From the IMG/VR virus record IMGVR_UViG_3300006217_000024: a DNA stretch of 20,000 nucleotides; one strand, 5' to 3'. A program made the position numbers and the translations under genes. Positions 3 to 18,081 of this stretch are shown piece by piece. Position 1 is the stretch's first letter. Every line of letters starts with the position of its first letter. Below the pieces are notes generated by a model that searched no databases, was not told the origin of the DNA, and saw only the letters and a program-made list of their open reading frames with translations. The stretch is from an uncultured virus (IMG/VR IMGVR_UViG_3300006217_000024). Lineage: Duplodnaviria; Heunggongvirae; Uroviricota; Caudoviricetes.

Positions 3-716
3 GACACAGGAAGCGATTACATCACCTACCAGCAAGACGCGAACCGTCTCATCGAATGGGCGATCACGCGCTTGGGCCTGGGCGAGTTCTTCAGGGCCCG
101 CACAAGTGACGCCGGAATCGTCGTGACCGGAAGGTTCGACCGCTTTGCCGACGGGTATGCGGGGCTTTGCAAGGCTCTCTCCTCTGGCGGCGCGAAACTC
201 AAGGCGATCTATGACGGTGAGCGCGTAGAGCTTTACGCCCTTCCGGTCGCCCGCTACACCGAGGGAGAGGCCCTTGACGCGGATGAGATCACGCTTGTGA
301 TCAAGCAGAACCGAGGGTGCGTGAACCATCTGATCTGTGCGGGAAAGGGTGAACTGCGGGACCGCATCGTGGTGCATCTCTACGCCGATCGCAAGCATCG
401 GATATCACGCACCCAGACCCTGTTCGGCGTGGATGAGGTTGCCGAGTTCTACGACTACAGCAACGCCGAGGAGGCAGATCTGTTAGAGAAGGGCATCGCC
501 AAGCTGCAGGAGTATCAAGAGACCAGCGAGATGGTGGAGGTCACGATCAACAGCGAACGCGAGCTCGATATAGGGGACGTGGTGGGTGCTACTGATCCAG
601 AGACAGGGCTTGCCGCCACAGCGACAGTAACCAAGAAGATCGTGACAAGCGATGGGGAGACATGGACGGCAGAGTACAAGGCCTCGGCCGCTGCCACAGT
701 CAGCATAGCCGCCTGA
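3..716 (+). CDS. Minor tail protein (Siphovirus Gp37/ReqiPepy6-like), 5'-truncated by window edge
   Basis: Frame open from base 3; 'VNHLICAGKGELRDRIVVHLYAD' and 'LDIGDVVGATD' resemble this family; lies upstream of the tail fibre. Confidence 0.7.
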   Translation, partial: DTGSDYITYQQDANRLIEWAITRLGLGEFFRARTSDAGIVVTGRFDRFADGYAGLCKALSSGGAKLKAIYDGERVELYALPVARYTEGEALDADEITLVIKQNRGCVNHLICAGKGELRDRIVVHLYADRKHRISRTQTLFGVDEVAEFYDYSNAEEADLLEKGIAKLQEYQETSEMVEVTINSERELDIGDVVGATDPETGLAATATVTKKIVTSDGETWTAEYKASAAATVSIAA

Positions 717-764
717 GTGACACCAGGCGCATGATGGAGGCGAAACGCGAAGGAAGGACAGGAT

Positions 765-1001
765 ATGGGTGTTACTTCTGGATACTCAGAGTACGTATGC
801 GAGGGCTGCGACGAGCTGGCCATGATCAAGGACGATGACAACACCGCCAAGAACAAGTGGCAGGAGATCGAGCGTGTGACCGCTGATGGGCAGCACATCA
901 AGCGGATGCTGTGCGAGAAGTGCCGCAAGGCCTACAGCCCCTTTGCTGCTGAACAGGACGCCGCCTTCAACGCCTTCATGGCCTCTCGCAGGAGCGCATG
1001 A
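765..1001 (+). CDS. Small CxxC...CxxC (Zn-binding) protein in the tail module
   Basis: 78-aa ORF with CEGC and CEKC; RBS-like AAGGA; ATGA overlap with next gene. Confidence 0.75.
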   Translation: MGVTSGYSEYVCEGCDELAMIKDDDNTAKNKWQEIERVTADGQHIKRMLCEKCRKAYSPFAAEQDAAFNAFMASRRSA

Positions 1002-1849
1002 TGGAGATCGTAACCGGCTTCCAGGGGAAGAACCACGTCACCGCCCAGCAGCTCTCTCGCCTGATCTCCGGCTTAGCAGGAGACGAGACCTATGTCCTTG
1101 ACACGCAGGACCAGCTGGCGATAGAAGTTGTCTCAGCCAACAAGGTGACCATAGCCACAGGCGATCTGATTGCTCAAGGCACCTACTTCACCAACGAGGC
1201 CCCCGAGGATCTGGTGATCGAGAACGGCGTAACGGGTCTGAACCGCAACGATCTCATCGTCTGCAGGTACGAGAAGGCGGAACCTGCAGTCGACGAAGAT
1301 GGGAATCCGGACTACACGATTCCGCGTATCGAAAGCGGTGACTGGGCTGTGGTGAAAGGCACGCCCTCCTCAGGCACCCCAGAAGACCCGTCGGTCGTCA
1401 CTGCATCCCTTCAGGATCCGAACACGTCCCTGGCAGAGTTCCCCGTTTACCGTATTCCGATACGCGGGCTGTCTGTAGGGACACCCGAGCGGATACCCCC
1501 GGTGATCCCCTCTATGCGTGAAGCTTGTGATTCCCTATCACAAACGCTCGAAGGCACATGGCAGCGCATCTCTGGAGGCAAGGGAAACGGACAGTGGTTC
1601 AATAGTCCGCTTCTTGGCGCCACGAAAATCATCCTCGCAGTCGAACATGATGCTCACGAGTCATTGATTGTTTGGCGCACGGTCACCCTCGAAGAGCTGG
1701 AGCAGGCGAACGCATCAAATCCAGTGGTTGTATCATCCTTGATCGAGCCGCAGACCTACTCCATCTCAGCATACATTTCGAATGGAAACATATATGGAAA
1801 GAACGCAAATCCGAACTTTGCGACAGTATGGATCTATGGACTCGTGTAG
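998..1849 (+). CDS. Tail fibre/receptor-binding protein: constant N-terminus fused to currently expressed variable cassette 1 (1529-1849)
   Basis: Last tail gene before the holin; recombination site at 1527-1543 encodes the DSLSQ junction shared with the silent cassettes. Confidence 0.85.
   Translation: MMEIVTGFQGKNHVTAQQLSRLISGLAGDETYVLDTQDQLAIEVVSANKVTIATGDLIAQGTYFTNEAPEDLVIENGVTGLNRNDLIVCRYEKAEPAVDEDGNPDYTIPRIESGDWAVVKGTPSSGTPEDPSVVTASLQDPNTSLAEFPVYRIPIRGLSVGTPERIPPVIPSMREACDSLSQTLEGTWQRISGGKGNGQWFNSPLLGATKIILAVEHDAHESLIVWRTVTLEELEQANASNPVVVSSLIEPQTYSISAYISNGNIYGKNANPNFATVWIYGLV
1527..1543 (+). repeat. Shufflon crossover site A, GTGATTCCCTATCACAA
   Basis: Dyad TTGTGA-TTCCCTA-TCACAA (1525-1543) with asymmetric 7-bp spacer; inverted copies at 2116-2132 and 2306-2322. 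Confidence 0.9.
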
Positions 1850-2132: not shown

Positions 2133-2320
2133 TACAATGTGCGACTCATTATCGTTTTCCCGTTTTTCTGGATAGTAATCTGCGCGTATTCGCTTTGCGC
2201 CCATAGCTGCCCATACAGGTCTCCGTTTGTTATGCCTATTTGAAAAGCTTTATCAGTCACGGCAAATGTCAGTCTGCTGAGTTTGCTAATGAGTGTCTGT
2301 ACTTCTTGCGATAGGGAATC
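2132..2320 (-). CDS. Silent variable C-terminal cassette 2 (start-less, 62 aa: DSLSQEVQTLISKL...KTIMSRTL)
   Basis: Begins with the same DSLSQ junction as the expressed gene; 3' part of track ORF 2132..2422. Confidence 0.85.
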   Translation of the reverse strand, partial: DSLSQEVQTLISKLSRLTFAVTDKAFQIGITNGDLYGQLWAQSEYAQITIQKNGKTIMSRTL

Positions 2321-2322
2321 AC
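2306..2322 (-). repeat. Shufflon crossover site B, GTGATTCCCTATCGCAA
   Basis: 16/17 identical to site A, inverted; contains the invertase stop codon. Confidence 0.9.
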
Positions 2323-3029
2323 GCGGCCATCGGAAGCTCTCTCGCCGGTTGCGGTGCAGGCTGTGGCGGGATGATGCCCTTGTACATGTCATCGCAGCTT
2401 TTACCAAGCACCAATCGGGCAAGCCTGCGCTGCACCCGTCGCTTGGTCGCAGCAGTGATCTCCATGTAGTATCGGTAGCAGGTCTGGATATTGCTGTGTC
2501 CCATCATCTCAGCCACGTGCTCAATGGCTGCTCCGGCCTTGATCTCTACCGCACCAGTGCGCCAGTCGATGGATTCCCAGCTGAGATAGTAGTTCTCGGA
2601 GGGACGCAACCCCAAGGCGCTCTGCAGGATTAAGGTCGGTTCAAATAGATGTCCGACAAAGCCGCGGATAAGCTTTTTCAGGCGACGCTGCGTAAGCGTG
2701 TTGAGAGGCTCTTGAGGCTTTTGGGTAATCTCGATCCTCCGTGTGGGGTCTATGGCCTCCAAGCCCTCATCTATCGCCCACCGGATGATCTGTCTGAGGC
2801 ATTTGTACGCCTTCTCTGCGCCTGATGGTCCGCGCAATGGTGTCAACTCGTCAACCCACGCTTGCACATCCTTACGCGTGATCTCGCTAACCCTGAGCGC
2901 ACCCCAGCGTGGCAATACGTGACGGTTGATGGATGACTCGTAGCCGTAAACGGTATCGGGCTTTCTGCGCTCACGTTTCTCGGTGAGGTAGTCATTGCAA
3001 ATCTCGGTGATGGTGCTCAGTTCGTACAT
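2319..3029 (-). CDS. Tyrosine recombinase (shufflon invertase), apparently with an in-frame internal deletion
   Basis: RBS AAGGAGG before ATG 3029; core-binding domain, GLRPSE (catalytic R) and MMGHSNIQTCYRYY (H, Y) present; K and HxxR segment missing. Confidence 0.85.
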   Translation of the reverse strand: MYELSTITEICNDYLTEKRERRKPDTVYGYESSINRHVLPRWGALRVSEITRKDVQAWVDELTPLRGPSGAEKAYKCLRQIIRWAIDEGLEAIDPTRRIEITQKPQEPLNTLTQRRLKKLIRGFVGHLFEPTLILQSALGLRPSENYYLSWESIDWRTGAVEIKAGAAIEHVAEMMGHSNIQTCYRYYMEITAATKRRVQRRLARLVLGKSCDDMYKGIIPPQPAPQPARELPMAA

Positions 3030-3116
3030 AGCTCCTCCTTTGAGTGACAGCAGGCGCATCATCTGAGATGCGACATGTGGAGGATTATGTGGCCGTCACG
3101 AGCGAAAGGAGAGATT

Positions 3117-3554
3117 GTGGACTGGGTTACAGCAATAGCCTGGCAGCCGATTTTGGTGATAGTCGTGCTGATGGCGTTCGACATCATCACCGGCTTCGGC
3201 GGAGCCGCAAAGGAGGGTGTCATCCAATCAGGCAAGATGCGCGAGGGGCTATGGCATAAAGCGGGATTCCTGGGGTTGGTCGTCCTTGCGATCATCTGGG
3301 AAGTCGCGGTGCTGTGGATCAATTTCGACGCCTATCTAAAGGGCGCGGGCACCATCGTGCCGGAGTTCCCGGCGGTTTCCGTTGTGTGCGCATTCATAGC
3401 CTTGATCGAACTAATAAGCATCGTCGAGAACCTATGCGTACTCAACCCATCGATCGCGACTCTGCCCTTCATAAAGCAGCTGAAGGCTCACGATCCAGCG
3501 GCCCCGGACATCAAGGTCGAGGTTGATGACGGCGACACACGCACAGACGAGTAG
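3117..3554 (+). CDS. Phage holin (holin family 4-like)
   Basis: GTG start after AAAGGAG; three hydrophobic segments; 'DIITG...SGKMREGLWHK...ELISIVENL' pattern; upstream of the endolysin. Confidence 0.85.
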   Translation: MDWVTAIAWQPILVIVVLMAFDIITGFGGAAKEGVIQSGKMREGLWHKAGFLGLVVLAIIWEVAVLWINFDAYLKGAGTIVPEFPAVSVVCAFIALIELISIVENLCVLNPSIATLPFIKQLKAHDPAAPDIKVEVDDGDTRTDE

Positions 3555-3834
3555 CCCTACAGCCAGTCAAGAGCGGCGCGTGATGCTGATCGCGGCGCTG
3601 CTTGCCTTTGGTATGGTGGCCCTTGTCATGGCCATACGCCTCGGGTCGTGGTTTCTCGCGCCCGCTGAGGTGCCACCAGAGCCAGAGACGCTCCCTGCTG
3701 TTGATCTGCCCCTCCTCACGCCCCTGCAGCGCGAGGAGGCCCGCAGAAGCGGCGTGGGTGCTTATGAGTTTGACGGCATGTGGTATGTAAACGCGGCTTT
3801 GCCGCCTGAACACTGGGAGGACTGGATTGGCTAA
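3523..3834 (+). CDS. Small single-TM protein in the lysis cassette (start uncertain)
   Basis: Hydrophobic stretch then Pro-rich region; overlaps the endolysin start. Confidence 0.6.
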   Translation: MMTATHAQTSSPTASQERRVMLIAALLAFGMVALVMAIRLGSWFLAPAEVPPEPETLPAVDLPLLTPLQREEARRSGVGAYEFDGMWYVNAALPPEHWEDWIG

Positions 3835-4669
3835 GCTATACATCATCTGCGGCCATGGAGCAGGGGACCCTGGAGCCTGCGCGGCAGGCCAGACCGAGGA
3901 GGAGCGCGTCCGTGCGCTGGCGGCGATCATCAAAGAGCGCGGCGGCGCGGATGTGGAAGTGCTTGACACATCACGCAACTGGTACGTGGATGGCGGCATC
4001 AACAGTCTCACGTTGCCAGAGGGCGCTATGCTGTTGGAGCTGCATCGTGATTGGGCGGGAGAGAGCGCACGCGGTGCCCACGTGATCATCTATGCGGGCT
4101 TCGAGGCCGATGACTTCGATAAAGCCCTGGCATCCAAGCTGTCCGCCATCCTTCCGGGACGTTCGCAGACCATCGTGAAGCGCAGCGATCTGGCAAACCC
4201 GAAGCGTGCTGCCAGACGCGGCATCAACTACCGCCTCGTCGAGGTGGGCTTCATCTCCAACGCTGAAGACCGCAACATTTTCGACACGCGCATCACCGAC
4301 ATCGCTGACGCCATTCTGGCGGCAGCTGACATCAGCATCCTGGCAACGAACCCACAGCCTGCTCAACCTGCCCCTACGCCGTCCAGCCCATCGGCATCTA
4401 GCTCGGCCGAGAAAGCTGGCTCTGGTTTCGGCGGCACCTATCGCTGCACCGTCTCCAAGCTCAACGTGCGGGACGCTCCGGGCCTCAGCGGAAACATCGT
4501 CACCAGCTATGCCAAGGGACAGACAGTCGTGCTCGATGATTGGTACGTATCACGAGATGGATACATCTGGGGACGTTACACAGGTGCTCAGAGTGGCAAG
4601 TTGCGGTATGTGGCTGTTGGCCGTGCCACCGGCAAACCAGAGCCGGATGACTATCTGATAAAGGTCTAG
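3827..4669 (+). CDS. Endolysin: N-acetylmuramoyl-L-alanine amidase (Amidase_3) with C-terminal SH3-type cell-wall-binding domain
   Basis: ICGHG, E, LELH, LVEVGFISN motifs; P/S-rich linker; 'LNVRDAPG...DGYIWGRY' SH3b pattern. Confidence 0.92.
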   Translation: MAKLYIICGHGAGDPGACAAGQTEEERVRALAAIIKERGGADVEVLDTSRNWYVDGGINSLTLPEGAMLLELHRDWAGESARGAHVIIYAGFEADDFDKALASKLSAILPGRSQTIVKRSDLANPKRAARRGINYRLVEVGFISNAEDRNIFDTRITDIADAILAAADISILATNPQPAQPAPTPSSPSASSSAEKAGSGFGGTYRCTVSKLNVRDAPGLSGNIVTSYAKGQTVVLDDWYVSRDGYIWGRYTGAQSGKLRYVAVGRATGKPEPDDYLIKV

Positions 4670-5448
4670 CTGTCCAGCTCTCTGAGGTAGATGTGGATGA
4701 TGGGGACGGTGCCCATTATCATCTCGTCGGTGGACACGGTGGCATCATCCATCTTCGAGGCTGGGTAGGTGTGCGTTCCGAAGCGCACCATGTCCTCGCC
4801 CCGCTTGGACACGAACGGCTCAAGCTGCTCGTTGTGCAAGAGAGCGTACTGACGAGGTGTGATCTTGACGAAATCATAGGTGGGGATGTCTGTTGTGTAG
4901 ACCTCCCGCCTTATGTCGATGACCTCATACGATCCGGCCACGAGGGCTTCGGCTTGATCCCAGTCGGAGTGGGCGGAGATGTCCAGATAGCGCGTGGCCC
5001 CGTCGATGTGATAGGCGATGACCTCAGCTCCATCCCTCACGAGCAAACGCCCGTTGCGGCGTCCGATGAAGTTGATGCCAGGTGCGTCATCACGAGCGAC
5101 ATCATATACCCAGCTGTCATATGCGCTCGTTGATTTGACACCCCATTTCAGGATGGTGCCCACCGCAGGGGCTAGGCCGTAGCGCGGAGACCTGCCACGA
5201 CCGCCCTCATTGTAGGTGAGGCCGCCGCTGTTGATCTCCGTACGCACGAGGTTACACGGCACGTTGTCCTGCGACATCACCGCTTCATACAGCTCCTCGG
5301 CGGTGTCCTTGACCTTCTGCGGCACACGCTCCGGTCGGCATGTGTGCCAATACTCGAAGATGCTCCTGCCACCGTGCGTGTATTGCGACCACTCAGCAAT
5401 GCTGATGTAACCGCCATCGACATACTCAGTAATCGTGTCTTTCAGCAT
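4666..5448 (-). CDS. Putative ADP-ribosyltransferase (R-S-E class)
   Basis: LVR69, KS106-T-S108 and LDISAHSDWDQ165-A-E167-ALV in canonical order; RBS GAAAGG. Confidence 0.65.
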   Translation of the reverse strand: MLKDTITEYVDGGYISIAEWSQYTHGGRSIFEYWHTCRPERVPQKVKDTAEELYEAVMSQDNVPCNLVRTEINSGGLTYNEGGRGRSPRYGLAPAVGTILKWGVKSTSAYDSWVYDVARDDAPGINFIGRRNGRLLVRDGAEVIAYHIDGATRYLDISAHSDWDQAEALVAGSYEVIDIRREVYTTDIPTYDFVKITPRQYALLHNEQLEPFVSKRGEDMVRFGTHTYPASKMDDATVSTDEMIMGTVPIIHIYLRELDS

Positions 5449-5483
5449 CCGTTCGCCTTTCTATCAGGACGGCTGTTCTGTCA

Positions 5484-5523
5484 CGCCCCATCCCTCGATG
5501 ATGAGCTCATTGAGGGATGGGCG
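5484..5523. terminator. Strong intergenic hairpin (attenuator/terminator-like) upstream of the ART gene
   Basis: CCATCCCTCGATGA (5488-5501) pairs with TCATTGAGGGATGG (5507-5520), one G-T pair; no U-tract. Confidence 0.55.
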
Positions 5524-5533
5524 GTCATCTCCT

Positions 5534-6025
5534 CTATTCGTTCGATATCTTTCGCTTGCAAGATTCAAGCGATCCCGGAGTCACGTATACAGACCCATGG
5601 ACCTTGATGGCTTTGAGCTTACCCTCCGCTATCATCTGCGTTATCCGGCCAGGGGTAACGCCGAGTGACCGAGCGGCATCTGCGGCGGATACGGTGTGTG
5701 CTTTACGAATGCCAACGCCAACGCCGCATGCGAACTGGTCTTTGTCGTAGCCATCATCGTACCAGCCGAGATCTATGCCGTCCATGTAGTAGCCGATCCG
5801 GTCCTCGTCCTGCGGGGTGAGGGCGCGGGAGGCGAAAGCCTTGCGCATGAGTAGCGCAAGCCCCGTGTCAGGATGGTAGAACACATTGTCAATCGTGAAG
5901 CCGTCAAGGCCATAGCAATCCCTGCCTTCGCGCTCAGCGTCCTTGTTAATGGCGTCCCGCACAATGCGGTAGATCTGACCATACAGGATGCCCATCTGAT
6001 AACTCTTCTCTTCGCTTACTGTCAT
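5534..6025 (-). CDS. C-terminal HTH_17-type DNA-binding domain with an N-terminal helical domain resembling Cas11c (Cas8c C-terminus)
   Basis: HTH 'VSAADAARSLGVTPGRITQMIAEGKLKAIK' is clear; the Cas11-like assignment is by-eye only. Confidence 0.7.
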   Translation of the reverse strand: MTVSEEKSYQMGILYGQIYRIVRDAINKDAEREGRDCYGLDGFTIDNVFYHPDTGLALLMRKAFASRALTPQDEDRIGYYMDGIDLGWYDDGYDKDQFACGVGVGIRKAHTVSAADAARSLGVTPGRITQMIAEGKLKAIKVHGSVYVTPGSLESCKRKISNE

Positions 6026-6034
6026 GTCATCCCC

Positions 6035-6442
6035 CTATGCTACGAGCTCGTGTGCGATCTCGGTGAAGACCTGCATAGGCCGCCAGTTCTGGTTCTCGAT
6101 GAACCACTCGGCCGACGTTTGTTCAGTGAGCTGGGAGCGCATGCGGCTGTATATCTCAGCCACGGTATCCTCCGCTCCCTCTGCACCTTTGCCGCACTTA
6201 TCTACAAAGGATTCGTAGTCTCTGATGAGCCCTGAGCGGATGTCGAGCGCCCAAGCGATCTGCTTCTCAGAGCCCTTCAGCTCGGCCATGCCATCCTCGC
6301 CGTTCTTTGCAGCCCTGCACGCGTCGCAGGGATGAGACGCAAGCCATGCTGCTTTGCGCTCACGCTCACCGTGGACGTTGGTGCCGCAGATGTTGACCGT
6401 GGTGGTATGCCCGCAGGTGTGCTCGATCTCGTACTTTGCCAT
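6035..6442 (-). CDS. Conserved phage/mobile-element hypothetical protein (CGH...CxxC Zn-finger and 'LKGSEKQIAWA.DIR' motif)
   Basis: Clean ORF, RBS GAAAGGG, first gene after the promoter at 6473-6501. Confidence 0.8.
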   Translation of the reverse strand: MAKYEIEHTCGHTTTVNICGTNVHGERERKAAWLASHPCDACRAAKNGEDGMAELKGSEKQIAWALDIRSGLIRDYESFVDKCGKGAEGAEDTVAEIYSRMRSQLTEQTSAEWFIENQNWRPMQVFTEIAHELVA

Positions 6443-6465
6443 ATCATGCCCTTTCTCTTGCTGTC

Positions 6466-6523
6466 ATTAAACATTTTATAATATTGTTTAGCGTTTGTCT
6501 ATACGATTTTGAAAATGTTTAAT
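6466..6523 (-). promoter_or_regulatory. Sigma70-type promoter flanked by a perfect 12-bp inverted repeat (operator)
   Basis: -35 TAGACA (6496-6501), 17-bp spacer, -10 TAAAAT (6473-6478); ATTAAACATTTT 6466-6477 and AAAATGTTTAAT 6512-6523; extra half-site TGTTTA 6485-6490. Confidence 0.8.
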
Positions 6524-6689
6524 CAGATAGTAGGCCAGCCTCTGCTTCTGCTGTCGCATCCATCCAATCCTCGCATGACCTGAGGGCAGCTACCACTGCC
6601 CATAGCTCCGGTATGGTGTCGGCGTATTGTTCGACGATCTGAGCGCATGCGCTGATGGTTTCAGTAACTTCTGCGGAATTGTTTAGCAT
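6519..6689 (-). CDS. Small acidic hypothetical protein (56 aa)
   Basis: RBS GAAAGGA before ATG 6689. Confidence 0.55.
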   Translation of the reverse strand: MLNNSAEVTETISACAQIVEQYADTIPELWAVVAALRSCEDWMDATAEAEAGLLSD

Positions 6690-6752
6690 GACGGGTCCTT
6701 TCACGAGGGTAATCCCACCATTTTGACTGCTAAAACAGACAGAAACCGTGAA

Positions 6753-7007
6753 ACGATGTTACATGGTTTCTAGATTGAGAATAATCTTTTACTGGTGATT
6801 CATTACGAAATGGAGCAGTTCAGCGCAGTCTTGAAAACTGTTGAAGGGAAACCTTCCGTGGGTTCGAATCCTACTTCCTCCGCCAGGTTTGACCAGTTCA
6901 GGATATGTTTTTCGTCCTTCACCTCAAATGCCCTTTACTGCGTACAAACGTACTGTTTTTACCAGTTTTTACCCTCGTTTACCAGTTAATGTTACACGAT
7001 GTTACAT
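6753..7007. other. attP region with arm-type repeats
   Basis: ACGATGTTACAT at 6753-6764 and 6996-7007; TTTACC at 6958, 6968 and 6978 (10-bp phasing); AT-rich; surrounds the tRNA fragment. Confidence 0.75.
6825..6885 (+). tRNA. 3' fragment of tRNA-Ser(TGA), attP core; not a complete tRNA
   Basis: Anticodon arm GCAGT-CT-TGA-AA-ACTGT, long variable arm GAAGG-GAAA-CCTTC, T arm GTGGG-TTCGAAT-CCTAC, 3' end TTCCTCC-G-CCA; no D arm upstream. Confidence 0.88.
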
Positions 7008-8162
7008 CTTGAATGCCTTGGCAGTCTCCCTTTTGATGTGCGCTGAGAGGTTATCAGCAAGCATCAAGGCGCCACTCCTTGTGAGCTCTTGATAGTTAGC
7101 TCCGCGCGTGGTGCCATCCGAATGACCCATTGCCAAAGATACAAGCGAATCCTCAGATCCAGCGTCTCCTTGCATTGTTGACCATGATTTCCTCAGCTTC
7201 CCTGGGTTGACGTACTTGATCCCCTTCTTGCCGCAAGAGGACTTGTATTTCGATGACACAGTAGCTGGGTTCGTATAATGCTCAGCGAGGTATATCCCAT
7301 CCTCGCAGGACTTTCCGCTCGGACAGAGAGGACCGCTCTCGGGGAGGATCTCGGCAATCCGGATGGAAAATGGCTCACCTAAAGCTACCACGCGCTTGCA
7401 GTACCTCTCATCAGTCTTAGTCTCCTTGAGGACCCTCCCATGGCGTGAGGATACGAGGGCCTTGTTGATATCAATTAGAAAGTAAAGATGCCCCTCCTGC
7501 TCTAGCCATGTGAAATCCTCAGCCAAAAGCGCACAGGCCTCCTCTACGCGAGGCCCACATCCAGCCTCAGTGAGCAGCAGGGCCTCATACTTGATGCCCC
7601 TTATGGATTTCATCCAGTCAATGACCTCATGGGCCTGGAGTAAAGGCCTTGCCTTAGGGACAGCTTTCTTCCGGTAAACGTACCTCGTACAAGGATTAGC
7701 CATATCCACCTTCTCGTGATGGATAGCGAGATTGATCATCTTCCGCCACAGGGAAAAGGCGGATTTTTGGACCCAGGGAGAATCTATCTCAGCTAGTACC
7801 TCTTCCACGCGTAGGCCGGTGGTCTCATGCACGATATCCTTAGCTATCCGAGGCTCTAGTTCCTTCTCCCAGACGCGGATGTTGTCTTCGCGAGTCCTTA
7901 TAGCAAGATCATACTTATCGAATGATGGGACTATCACCCCGCCCCAAAGCTCCTCATAGGTCATATCAGGGAGTACTCCCCCGCGCTGGATGTAGATCTT
8001 GGCTAGTTCAAGCTCAGCGTCTTCCCAGGTGCCATAGATGGTCTTGGAGGGCTGGCTCCTCTTGCCGTTCGGCTTTATATCGCCTTCCCACCAGATGCGG
8101 TGCTTCTCTTCTGGGATCAATTCCTCGATATGACCCCAGCGGACCTTGTTCCGCTTCGCCAT
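7002..8162 (-). CDS. int: Phage tyrosine integrase
   Basis: 386 aa; GPRVEEACAL (R), ETKT (K), KLRK (variant HxxR), MGH, ANY (Y); adjacent to attP. Confidence 0.9.
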   Translation of the reverse strand: MAKRNKVRWGHIEELIPEEKHRIWWEGDIKPNGKRSQPSKTIYGTWEDAELELAKIYIQRGGVLPDMTYEELWGGVIVPSFDKYDLAIRTREDNIRVWEKELEPRIAKDIVHETTGLRVEEVLAEIDSPWVQKSAFSLWRKMINLAIHHEKVDMANPCTRYVYRKKAVPKARPLLQAHEVIDWMKSIRGIKYEALLLTEAGCGPRVEEACALLAEDFTWLEQEGHLYFLIDINKALVSSRHGRVLKETKTDERYCKRVVALGEPFSIRIAEILPESGPLCPSGKSCEDGIYLAEHYTNPATVSSKYKSSCGKKGIKYVNPGKLRKSWSTMQGDAGSEDSLVSLAMGHSDGTTRGANYQELTRSGALMLADNLSAHIKRETAKAFKM

Positions 8163-9510: not shown

Positions 9511-9933
9511 TTACGCTACCTCTTCCACTTCGGGCGAAACTTGTATAGATTCCTCCCTATCTTTTTCGATACGGACGGAATCACCGTCCGACATAAGCCT
9601 TGCCGTTTGCACTAAAGCACCGCGCCCCACCTTGTTCATGGACTCGAAGTAGCCGTTGAGGGCTTCTTGGTCCGGGTCGGAATAGATGCGCTGTTCTGGT
9701 GGCGTACGTCCTCCCAATTCGTCGAGAGTGCAATTAAGGGCATCCGCAAACTTCCAAGCCTTTTCATATGAAAAAGACACAAGCCCCTGTTCATATTGAG
9801 TATATGTATTCGGGTTGATACCCAAGTGCTTCGCAAAAGCTTTCGCACTTTTGTAGCCTGCCTCTTTCCTCTTCTTCTGAAGATGCGAGCCTATTTGTTT
9901 CAAGTCCGTTTTAGTGGTCATAAAAAGCTCCAT
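9511..9933 (-). CDS. CI-like XRE-family repressor (alternative start 9921)
   Basis: 'LQKKRKEAGYKSAKAFAKHLGINPNTYTQYEQG...FADALNCTLDEL' HTH; transcribed towards int, divergent from the early genes. Confidence 0.9.
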   Translation of the reverse strand: MELFMTTKTDLKQIGSHLQKKRKEAGYKSAKAFAKHLGINPNTYTQYEQGLVSFSYEKAWKFADALNCTLDELGGRTPPEQRIYSDPDQEALNGYFESMNKVGRGALVQTARLMSDGDSVRIEKDREESIQVSPEVEEVA

Positions 9934-10071: not shown

Positions 10072-10127
10072 CTGAATATCTCGAACGATGACCTCCGTTT
10101 CCGGTGGTCATCGTTCGAGATATTCAG
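10072..10127 (+). repeat. Perfect 22-bp inverted repeat (long hairpin) in the early leader
   Basis: CTGAATATCTCGAACGATGACC 10072-10093 is the exact reverse complement of 10106-10127. Confidence 0.9.
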
Positions 10128-10155
10128 TACATGAGAGACAGATTAGGAGCCACCC

Positions 10156-10383
10156 ATGAAGCGCATGACCACCGAGAAGTTCTATGAAACTTGCGAAGAG
10201 TATTACACCCTCGTCCATGACTGTGGGATGAAGGCCGAGGAAGCCCTCGAAGAAGTGAAGCAATGGCTCAAGAGCACGAAGATCTACGGCTTCTCGGAGA
10301 TGTTGACGAAATTCGGGATTGGAACGCATGAGGAGCTTTATCGCTATGGCGGTCAGCTTGCAGGCGAGATAGCAGCGTTCTGA
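10156..10383 (+). CDS. Hypothetical early protein
   Basis: RBS AGGAG; first ORF of the rightward operon. Confidence 0.75.
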   Translation: MKRMTTEKFYETCEEYYTLVHDCGMKAEEALEEVKQWLKSTKIYGFSEMLTKFGIGTHEELYRYGGQLAGEIAAF

Positions 10384-10398
10384 AGGAGTTGAGGAGCC

Positions 10399-10560
10399 AT
10401 GCCGATGATCTTGATCCAACTCACCCTCGTAGCTGCCGGTTTCTACCTCGGAGGCCCAGCCACGAAAGCAGGAGGAGCGTTCCTCTTGGCCGGAGTGGCG
10501 GCGTTCGGAATCGCTGTCGGCTGGTGGGCGTACGGAAAAGCGAAAGGAGGAAACCGATGA
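10399..10560 (+). CDS. Small membrane protein (53 aa, MPMILIQLTLVAAGFYLGG...WWAYGKAKGGNR)
   Basis: Translated by hand; RBS GAGGAG; ATGA overlap with the Cro-like gene; not in the ORF track. Confidence 0.65.
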   Translation: MPMILIQLTLVAAGFYLGGPATKAGGAFLLAGVAAFGIAVGWWAYGKAKGGNR

Positions 10561-17491: not shown

Positions 17492-18081
17492 TGGCTGGGG
17501 GATACACCTTCCATCAAAGCTATCACGAGGCTCTCAAAGCCCGTAGCCCGGAGGAGCGCCTGGCTCTCTACGATGCCATGAGCCTCTATGCCTTCGAGGC
17601 CACGGATACCGAGTTTGATGATCCTAACCTCGCCATGGCTTGGAGCCTTATCAAGCCGAACCTAGATGCTTCGCTCAAGCGGTCGAAGACCAATGCAGAT
17701 AACGCCCGTAAAAGGAGCGTTAAAGCCACATCTAAAACGACCGTACCAGCGACCGTTAAAACGGTGGCAAAACCGACCGCTAAAACGAGCGTTGAAACAC
17801 CTGTAGAAACGGTCGCTTTACCTGAATCATTAGGAGAGGAATGGAGTGGAGTAGAGAAGGAGAATCTTTCCCTTGGAAAGAAAGATTCTCCTTCTTCCCG
17901 GGCAGGAGACGGTGCGGCTGCGGCTAAGGCCGCACCGCCCCTGCCGAAAGGCTGGGAAGCGACGGGGTGCATCTGCACGCACTCGGGATGCCGTGAGAAT
18001 CAGCTCAGGGGCAGCAACGGTGAGCTATGGTGTCCGGCCTGTGACCGAGACGCACTCCGTGAGATGGGGGTGATCTCATGA
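17491..18081 (+). CDS. DUF6291-type replication initiator/replisome organiser
   Basis: N-terminus 'YTFHQSYHEALK...EERLALYDAMSLYAF'; repetitive central linker; C-terminal Cys cluster. Confidence 0.7.
   Translation: MAGGYTFHQSYHEALKARSPEERLALYDAMSLYAFEATDTEFDDPNLAMAWSLIKPNLDASLKRSKTNADNARKRSVKATSKTTVPATVKTVAKPTAKTSVETPVETVALPESLGEEWSGVEKENLSLGKKDSPSSRAGDGAAAAKAAPPLPKGWEATGCICTHSGCRENQLRGSNGELWCPACDRDALREMGVIS
17715..17820 (+). repeat. Degenerate 12-bp tandem repeats inside the replication gene (candidate origin iterons)
   Basis: Units such as ACCGTTAAAACG, ACCGCTAAAACG, AGCGTTGAAACA, CCTGTAGAAACG. Confidence 0.6.

Follow-up and report, generated by a model that had tools for sequence, protein, structure and literature searches.

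The window, the 20,000-nt stretch of uncultured-virus DNA that we analysed, has the gene content of a temperate phage, as judged by Pfam and PHROG matches. Along it, a minor tail protein gene is followed by a recombinase-like gene, the holin and endolysin genes, four minus-strand genes (p260-p163-p135-p61), the 3' fragment of a tRNA-Ser and an integrase gene (Table 1). Past the integrase lie a divergent repressor/Cro-like pair and then early genes (RusA-like, ParB-like, HNH). Our subject is p163, the middle of the three minus-strand genes p135-p163-p260, which in the prophage lie between the lysis cassette and attR. Identical copies of the p163 gene are present in genome G001 and on one IMG/VR contig.

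Table 1. Coordinates of the genes and sequence features around p163 in the window.
Feature	Position	Strand	Basis
Holin	3075-3554		
Endolysin	3827-4669		
p260, downstream gene, ADP-ribosyltransferase-like	4666..5448	-	ESM Atlas
p163 gene (163 aa, two domains)	5534..6025	-	ORF list
p163 C-terminal excisionase-type winged HTH (wHTH), residues 111-161	5543..5695	-	
p163 N-terminal five-helix domain, residues 1-107, very probable remote homologue of Cas11c / Cas8c-CTD	5705..6025	-	
p135, upstream gene, Cys/His-rich N-terminus	6035..6442	-	PHROG 16123 (function unknown), E 1.7e-24
Perfect 12-nt inverted repeat, candidate operator; arms 6466-6477 and 6512-6523, 34 nt apart	6466..6523	.	Repeat search
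Sigma-70-like promoter upstream of p135-p163-p260; -35 TAGACA, 17-nt spacer, -10 TAAAAT	6473..6501	-	Consensus scan, 10/12
p61, small ORF upstream of the promoter, no family; stop codon overlaps the right repeat arm	6519..6704	-	
attP core, 3' part of tRNA-Ser with its CCA end at 6886	6828..6886	+	blastn to phage tRNA-Ser
Tyrosine integrase	7002..8162	-	Pfam Phage_integrase, PHROG 1

Positions 2534-6886 of the window are 99.77% identical to contig C28 of G001, and the identity ends exactly at 6886, the CCA end of the tRNA. Past this end, citrate synthase and transporter genes follow in G001, and the integrase gene in the window. This end point indicates that the four minus-strand genes border attR in the prophage as its outermost genes, and that the window represents the attP form. 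A tRNA search found no whole tRNA at the att core. An accessory block with its own promoter at the end of a prophage is typical of accessory genes that are expressed in the lysogen.

Several other features of the phage deserve mention in their own right. A 14-nt inverted repeat (6741-6771, 86% complementary, 3-nt loop) lies beside the att core; this repeat and several direct repeats (6748/6991, 6889/6978) flank the core and are possibly integrase arm-type sites. At 10072-10127, immediately downstream of the repressor-like gene (9511-9933, minus strand), is a 26-nt inverted repeat (96% complementary, 4-nt loop) that may serve as operator or terminator; it overlaps the 3' end of a 103-aa ORF (10108-10419, minus strand). 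The early-gene region contains an inverted repeat of two perfect 16-nt arms separated by 9 nt (17855-17895). The recombinase-like gene between the tail genes and the holin is a second one of the tyrosine type (window 2319-3062, minus strand, 247 aa; G001, L052 2423-3427, 335 aa). Window and G001 differ left of position ~2113, which marks the tail-fibre region as mosaic.

The promoter-like site upstream of p135 is one of three between 4500 and 7100, compared with a mean of 2.0 in shuffled sequences; the site alone is therefore weak evidence of a promoter. It is bracketed by the perfect inverted repeat, the left arm of which overlaps the -10 element. The whole 20-kb window contains just three inverted repeats, this one among them, that have an exact 11-nt seed and a distance of 60 nt or less between their arms. 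With an HTH gene in the operon and an inverted repeat at the promoter, p163 fits the layout of Aca-type loci, the binding itself being a prediction. Autoregulation by the p163 wHTH through this repeat is plausible under any of the functional readings discussed below, and with moderate confidence we infer that it occurs.

Library scans recognised the C-terminal part of p163. Residues 113-154 matched Pfam HTH_17 (23.1 bits against a cut-off of 27), and the same part of the protein matched Pfam Rv2175c_wHTH and, at E 2e-4 (21.7 bits, below the cut-off of 28.8), the TIGR01764 'excise' model. The PHROG scan returned excisionase families (E 0.0014-0.0041) and a small-terminase HTH; PADLOC returned mad1, another small HTH. 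Residues 1-105 gave no family match in these scans, Cas_Csd1 included. AF2 modelled the whole protein (pLDDT 86.3, pTM 0.79) as five helices followed by a wHTH, which superposed on Xis in a structure comparison; the N-domain model had a pLDDT of 87.4. In overall charge the N-domain is acidic (pI 4.4-4.6). A preliminary description of this DNA had reported an ORF with four N-terminal blocks and a C-terminal HTH of the HTH_17 type, a window with no cas locus or array, and the stretch 6466-6523 as a site of interest. The ORF translation and Pfam bear out the ORF, its blocks and its HTH, and TIGR01764 points to the excisionase type for the HTH; Pfam and PHROG scans of the window ORFs found no cas gene; and 6466-6523 is the promoter-like site with its bracketing repeat.

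The HTH matches raise the question of whether p163 is a phage excisionase (recombination directionality factor) with an N-terminal extension. The TIGR01764 and PHROG E-values point that way, the gene lies ~1 kb from attP and int in the circular phage, and the PHROG scan found no other excisionase-like ORF among the 26 further ORFs of the window. However, no more than ~20 kb of the phage falls in the window, and the rest may encode an excisionase. In the prophage, moreover, the p163 gene is at the end opposite int and has its own promoter. Proteins with an excisionase / BldC / MerR-like wHTH (HTH_17, TIGR01764) are small, basic and single-domain, whereas p163, at 163 aa, adds an acidic domain of 107 residues. 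Among the annotated neighbours of its chromosomal relatives (genus g130, below) there was no integrase in the contexts examined. We consider an excisionase role improbable.

A HMMER search over 1.84 billion representatives gave 34 matches at E <= 0.001, 11 of which span both domains of p163 (142-171 aa); the remainder cover the HTH alone. Alignment A1 comprises these 11 sequences, the window protein and one close relative, and all 13 members carry the wHTH. Further searches added 15 family members (96-182 aa), 12 of them with the same wHTH. The family clusters are small (1-14 members each), and the habitats are phages, a mobilisable element and bacterial chromosomes.

Cas11c is the small subunit of type I-C Cascade and is equivalent to the C-terminal domain (CTD) of Cas8c/Csd1. 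The preliminary description had likened the four N-terminal blocks of p163, by eye, to motifs of this domain. We compared profiles with hhalign, using as the Cas8c reference the last 150 residues of 11 Cas8c proteins from same-phylum genomes, chosen by Pfam Cas_Csd1 (A2), and a full-length Cas8c alignment of ~596 columns (A5). On the side of p163 stood A1, an alignment of the window N-domain with seven relatives from the family genomes (A4), and a 16-sequence N-domain alignment (A6). Against A2, full-length A1 reached a probability of 68.6% (P 4.6e-5) and its N-domain columns 81.1% (P 1.2e-5, score 35.8). A4, which consists mostly of different sequences, reached 62.9% (P 7.1e-5). A6 matched A2 at 96.3% (P 1.6e-9, score 55.9, 89 columns), and the result was unchanged when the window row was removed. 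Searched against full-length Cas8c (A5), A6 had its sole match at columns 471-573, the Cas8c C-terminal domain (95.2%, P 2.7e-8), and alignment A3 had its sole match at columns 472-566 (50.0%, P 1.6e-4). Null controls scored lower: for A6, reversed alignments gave 9.4 and 10.1 and 50 column shuffles at most 16.2, against 55.9; for the A1 N-domain, with its score of 35.8, the maximum was 17.5 in 60 column shuffles and 28.0 in 60 ten-column block shuffles, and reversed alignments gave 8.6-10.4.

The motifs that had been quoted for Cas8c are found in the 11 Cas8c C-terminal sequences, and hhalign pairs the same blocks in the same order. The claimed similarity holds for the family profile (A6, with its null controls) but not for the window protein alone, which gave 0.6% against A2 (P 0.096, not significant). 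The relationship picked out by eye is thus real as far as the sequences can tell, but only at the level of the family; a single sequence cannot prove it.

In the hhalign register, the family-invariant G16 and P52 pair with the Cas8c-invariant G47 and P80. Some family members carry C-terminal motifs close to the Cas8c motif 'LSLEDQG.F.LGYYHQ', such as RLSLEDQGHVILGY, LTLEDQGALML and STEQVGQFILGYHQ. Other features differ from Cas11c. Several Cas8c-invariant residues are lost, R48, R71, S77 and H94 having no conserved counterpart in the p163 family. Identity between the p163 N-domain and Cas8c C-terminal domains is 11-16%, and Cas_Csd1, which does not recognise p163, was absent for all 13 A1 members at E up to 10 among the matches listed (25/30 families). 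The p163 N-domain is acidic, whereas Cas11c is neutral or basic: in overall charge, the N-domain pI is 4.3-5.6 in 17 of 18 family rows, compared with 5.6-10.1 in the 11 Cas8c C-terminal domains. Finally, Cas11c sits inside a cas8c/cas locus, whereas p163 lies outside any such locus and is fused to a wHTH.

Structure comparison gave an independent line of evidence. In a structure search with the p163 N-domain, type I-C chains took ranks 1-3 of 48,161, and the N-domain superposed on the whole Cas11c domain at 2.3-2.5 A; its fold, a bundle of five helices, is that of the I-C small subunit. Small helical bundles can resemble one another by convergence or chance, in which case the N-domain would be unrelated to CRISPR proteins. 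Foldseek returned E-values of 1.4 or worse, a family HMM retrieved no Cas8c from the PDB sequences, and the window protein alone has no match, all of which would be expected of a fortuitous resemblance. Against this stand the profile-profile comparison and the I-C structural ranks, two independent lines that agree in register, together with the match over the whole domain, the second match from the mostly different sequences of A4, and the shared invariant G and P positions with the LSLEDQG..LGY motif in some members. A chance resemblance is very improbable indeed. From the combination of profiles and fold we conclude with high confidence that the N-domain, ~107 residues, is a remote homologue of the whole of Cas11c / Cas8c-CTD, as the preliminary description had supposed. 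p163 is a two-domain protein, an acidic Cas11c-like bundle joined to an excisionase-type wHTH.

Among the structural models of BFVD, the best matches were five gut-phage proteins (TM 0.49-0.67, E 0.037-0.85). Two of them, at 98-107 aa, have no room for an extra domain; the other three are 143-165 aa, and two of these are named HTH proteins, one XRE-type. These model-based matches hint that the Cas11c-like bundle may be a portable phage module.

We then considered where relatives of p163 occur. A relative in genome G293 is part of an 11-kb element with a primase, an HNH endonuclease, a relaxase and a PBECR4 nuclease; a homologue of p135 (44% identity; L045 3253-3660) lies 1.9 kb from it. In both cases, p163 at its prophage end and the G293 relative on its relaxase-bearing element, a Cas-subunit homologue is carried by mobile DNA rather than by a cas locus. 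In genus g130, by comparison, relatives occur in 7 of 23 species on the chromosome, after nrdR-dut-X and before a thioesterase gene, among lexA, hflX and dapF, and the contexts examined contained no recognisable mobile element. The slot is variable (L046-L051, L059-L062): of four gene-less species examined, three have a lipoprotein-like gene of ~200 aa there and one a transposase-like gene. None of the g130 carriers has Cas8c. In the host family, at least nine genomes carry a two-domain relative; none of the nine examined has Cas8c, though only about one would be expected, and three of the nine have Cas1. G001, the nearest lysogen genome (99% complete), has no match to Cas8c or Cas1.

On another account, p163 is simply a DNA-binding regulator unconnected with CRISPR. 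Its wHTH would act on its own accessory operon or on promoters elsewhere in the phage or host, and the bundle would be an old, re-used module for self-association or for binding a partner other than a Cas protein. All 13 members of A1 have the two-domain architecture, and 12 of the 15 further members retain the wHTH fusion, which makes DNA binding look like a core function of the family, as it would be for a plain regulator. The chromosomal slot in g130 species, all without Cas8c, the very deep divergence from Cas8c, the lysogen G001 without CRISPR-Cas markers and the inverted repeat at the promoter are each what such a regulator would lead one to expect. It offers no reason, however, why the module should be the I-C small subunit specifically, and over its whole length. 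Nor does it sit easily with the viral structural matches that are too short for an added HTH, with the variability of the g130 slot, or with the placement of the window copy in a prophage-end accessory operon beside an ADP-ribosyltransferase (ART)-like gene. We regard a plain regulator as the main rival to the anti-CRISPR reading proposed below, and as only slightly less likely than it.

The gene downstream of p163, p260, has no Pfam or PHROG match. In the ESM Atlas, its features score 0.90 (borderline) to ADPrib_exo_Tox clusters and its structure has a TM of 0.61/0.56 to one such cluster; an R / S-T-S / Q-x-E pattern can be read by eye in its translation. On these model-based comparisons we treat a possible ADP-ribosyltransferase activity as a lead, not a finding. 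AcrIF11 is an anti-CRISPR ADP-ribosyltransferase that acts on Cas8f.

The order of the two genes, an HTH protein followed after 85 nt by an ART-like enzyme, recalls type II toxin-antitoxin systems, in which case p163 would be the antitoxin or the immunity/regulator partner of p260; its acidic N-domain would neutralise the enzyme and its HTH repress the operon. The acidity of the domain and the resemblance of p260 to ADPrib_exo_Tox proteins suit this account, as do weak matches at the level of the HTH to AbiEi_4 (5 of 13 A1 members, Pfam) and to a HicB-like PHROG (E 0.019). A conserved pairing would be expected of such partners, but BLASTP of p260 against the ORFs of seven other loci with p163 relatives found no homologue. 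Only 2 of 301 family genomes contain a p260 homologue. The one further copy, on G425:C152 (L064), directly follows not a p163-like gene but a pair of ORFs with the same MGGRG(G)S start as its own, and a 142-aa minus-strand ORF lies near it. That p260 is unlinked to p163 relatives elsewhere weakens the toxin-antitoxin reading, which also leaves the Cas11c homology unexplained; we doubt it strongly. The L064 locus is of separate interest, since its three consecutive MGGRG(G)S ORFs (100-1689, plus strand), the third of which is the p260-like ART, resemble a cassette array whose modules are alternative effectors.

A potential target for an anti-CRISPR is present among the relatives of the host. 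Of 301 family genomes, 39 have Cas8c, as do 2 of the 20 species in the host genus; G323, a same-genus genome, has a complete cas3-cas5-cas8c-cas7-cas4-cas1-cas2 locus with an array. Among 86 spacers from two same-genus I-C arrays, one (L058 spacer 40) matches the G001 prophage contig (L052 1808-1842) at 34/35 positions (E 2e-13), with the mismatch at position 7 and the flank TCC. The segment matched is in a mosaic stretch of that prophage with no counterpart in the window. The I-C PAM is TTC; with its mismatch and TCC flank, the G001 prophage could be an escape variant. In another genome, a free-standing 140-aa ORF with Cas8c-CTD/Cas11c sequence (Cas_Csd1 positions 440-557, E 7e-21; L055, G173:C1, 8112-8534, minus strand) lies between a 556-aa ORF, HipA-like by eye, and the cas3 gene of an I-C locus that already has a full cas8c.

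The closest known case to p163 is AcrIB4 of Listeria, a homologue of the C-terminal ~90 residues of Cas8b, that is, of Cas11b. AcrIB4 and p163 are both homologous to a Cascade large-subunit CTD or small subunit, and both genes lie on a mobile element, outside cas loci. According to a preprint (10.1101/2023.06.24.545427), AcrIB4 shares 38% identity with the final 90 residues of Cas8b, inhibits type I-B at a step prior to DNA binding, and does not stop Cascade from assembling. A second report describes a predicted binding of AcrIB4 to Cas8b at the Cas11 site and proposes that it replaces Cas11 (10.1101/2025.06.06.658234). The two proteins differ in subtype (I-B versus I-C), in standing, AcrIB4 having been tested and p163 being a candidate, and perhaps in the DNA-binding domain that p163 carries. 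They differ also in identity to the Cas protein; at 11-16%, far below the 38% of AcrIB4, a preserved Cascade interface cannot be assumed for p163.

Other anti-CRISPRs share single properties with p163. AcrIIA1 is an anti-CRISPR that carries its own HTH autoregulator. AcrIIC9 is described as an autoregulator of its own locus (Katz preprint, 10.1101/2023.06.24.545427), and the HTH of AcrIF24 as a repressor of the acr promoter (PMC9001735). In these three, as predicted for p163, one protein is both operon repressor and inhibitor domain, although they use HTH types different from that of p163 and have inhibitor domains without homology to Cas proteins. AcrIF3, according to the same Katz preprint, is a structural mimic of the Cas8f helical bundle without significant sequence similarity to Cas8f. 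It resembles p163 in being a viral helical protein similar to part of a Cascade large subunit; the p163 family has profile-level similarity to Cas8c, whereas AcrIF3, as described in that source, has none of significance to Cas8f.

We propose as our best reading, tentatively and at clearly less than an even chance, that p163 is a candidate type I-C anti-CRISPR that poisons Cascade by its subunit mimicry and has a built-in autoregulator. The preliminary description had likewise inferred a decoy that poisons Cascade and regulates its own operon; of that inference the structural half is supported here, and the functional half stands as a candidate role. In this proposal, p135, p163 and p260 would form one operon driven by the sigma-70-like promoter, and the wHTH of p163 would bind the inverted repeat and repress the operon in the manner of an Aca protein. 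The Cas11c-like domain would occupy the position of Cas11c or of the Cas8c-CTD in the type I-C Cascade of sensitive hosts. A neutral-to-basic Cas11 surface is described as holding the non-target strand (EVADES preprint). Because the N-domain of p163 is acidic rather than basic, it would be unable to hold that strand, and R-loop formation and interference would fail, a form of subunit poisoning like the one proposed for AcrIB4 in type I-B. An acidic N-domain is what a site-occupying mimic unable to hold DNA would look like. p260 may be a second anti-defence or host-modifying effector of the same operon.

In favour of an anti-CRISPR role are the accessory operon at the prophage end, the acidic N-domain, the presence of I-C in the host genus with a spacer match, and the precedent of AcrIB4. 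Counting against it are the 11-16% identity, the Cas8c-invariant positions left without a conserved counterpart, the missing Cas_Csd1 match, the lack of Cas8c and Cas1 matches in G001, the carriers without Cas8c, the chromosomal slot after nrdR-dut, the near-constant fusion to a wHTH, and the flaws of the spacer match: its mismatch, its TCC flank and its place outside the DNA common to the G001 prophage and the window. A more elaborate variant is a two-part operon: the Cas11c mimic would dock at the I-C small-subunit position and either poison Cascade or mark it for p260, the wHTH would repress the operon via the inverted repeat, and the chromosomal copies of g130 would represent a Cas subunit domesticated as a transcription factor. 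We offer it as a long shot.

Type I-C is a subtype used for genome editing. Among the literature matches listed, neither a Cas8c/Cas11c-like anti-CRISPR nor a Cas11c-wHTH fusion was described. To our knowledge, the Cas-derived anti-CRISPRs shown by experiment so far are those of type I-B (AcrIB3, AcrIB4) and a Cas3 homologue, and replacement of Cas11 by an anti-CRISPR has only been proposed. If the main reading holds, p163 is at once a Cas-derived inhibitor and an inhibitor-regulator fusion, both known kinds; otherwise it belongs to an unannotated family of Cas11c-bundle/wHTH proteins. Should p163 inhibit I-C, it would be the first small-subunit mimic for that subtype and a natural inhibitor-regulator fusion, and it would show how far a mimic may diverge (11-16% identity) and yet be found by profile and fold. 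Should it not, there is still a previously unannotated family of ~150-180 aa proteins that combine a Cas11c-type bundle with a DNA-binding domain, a family relevant to the origin or fate of Cascade small subunits.
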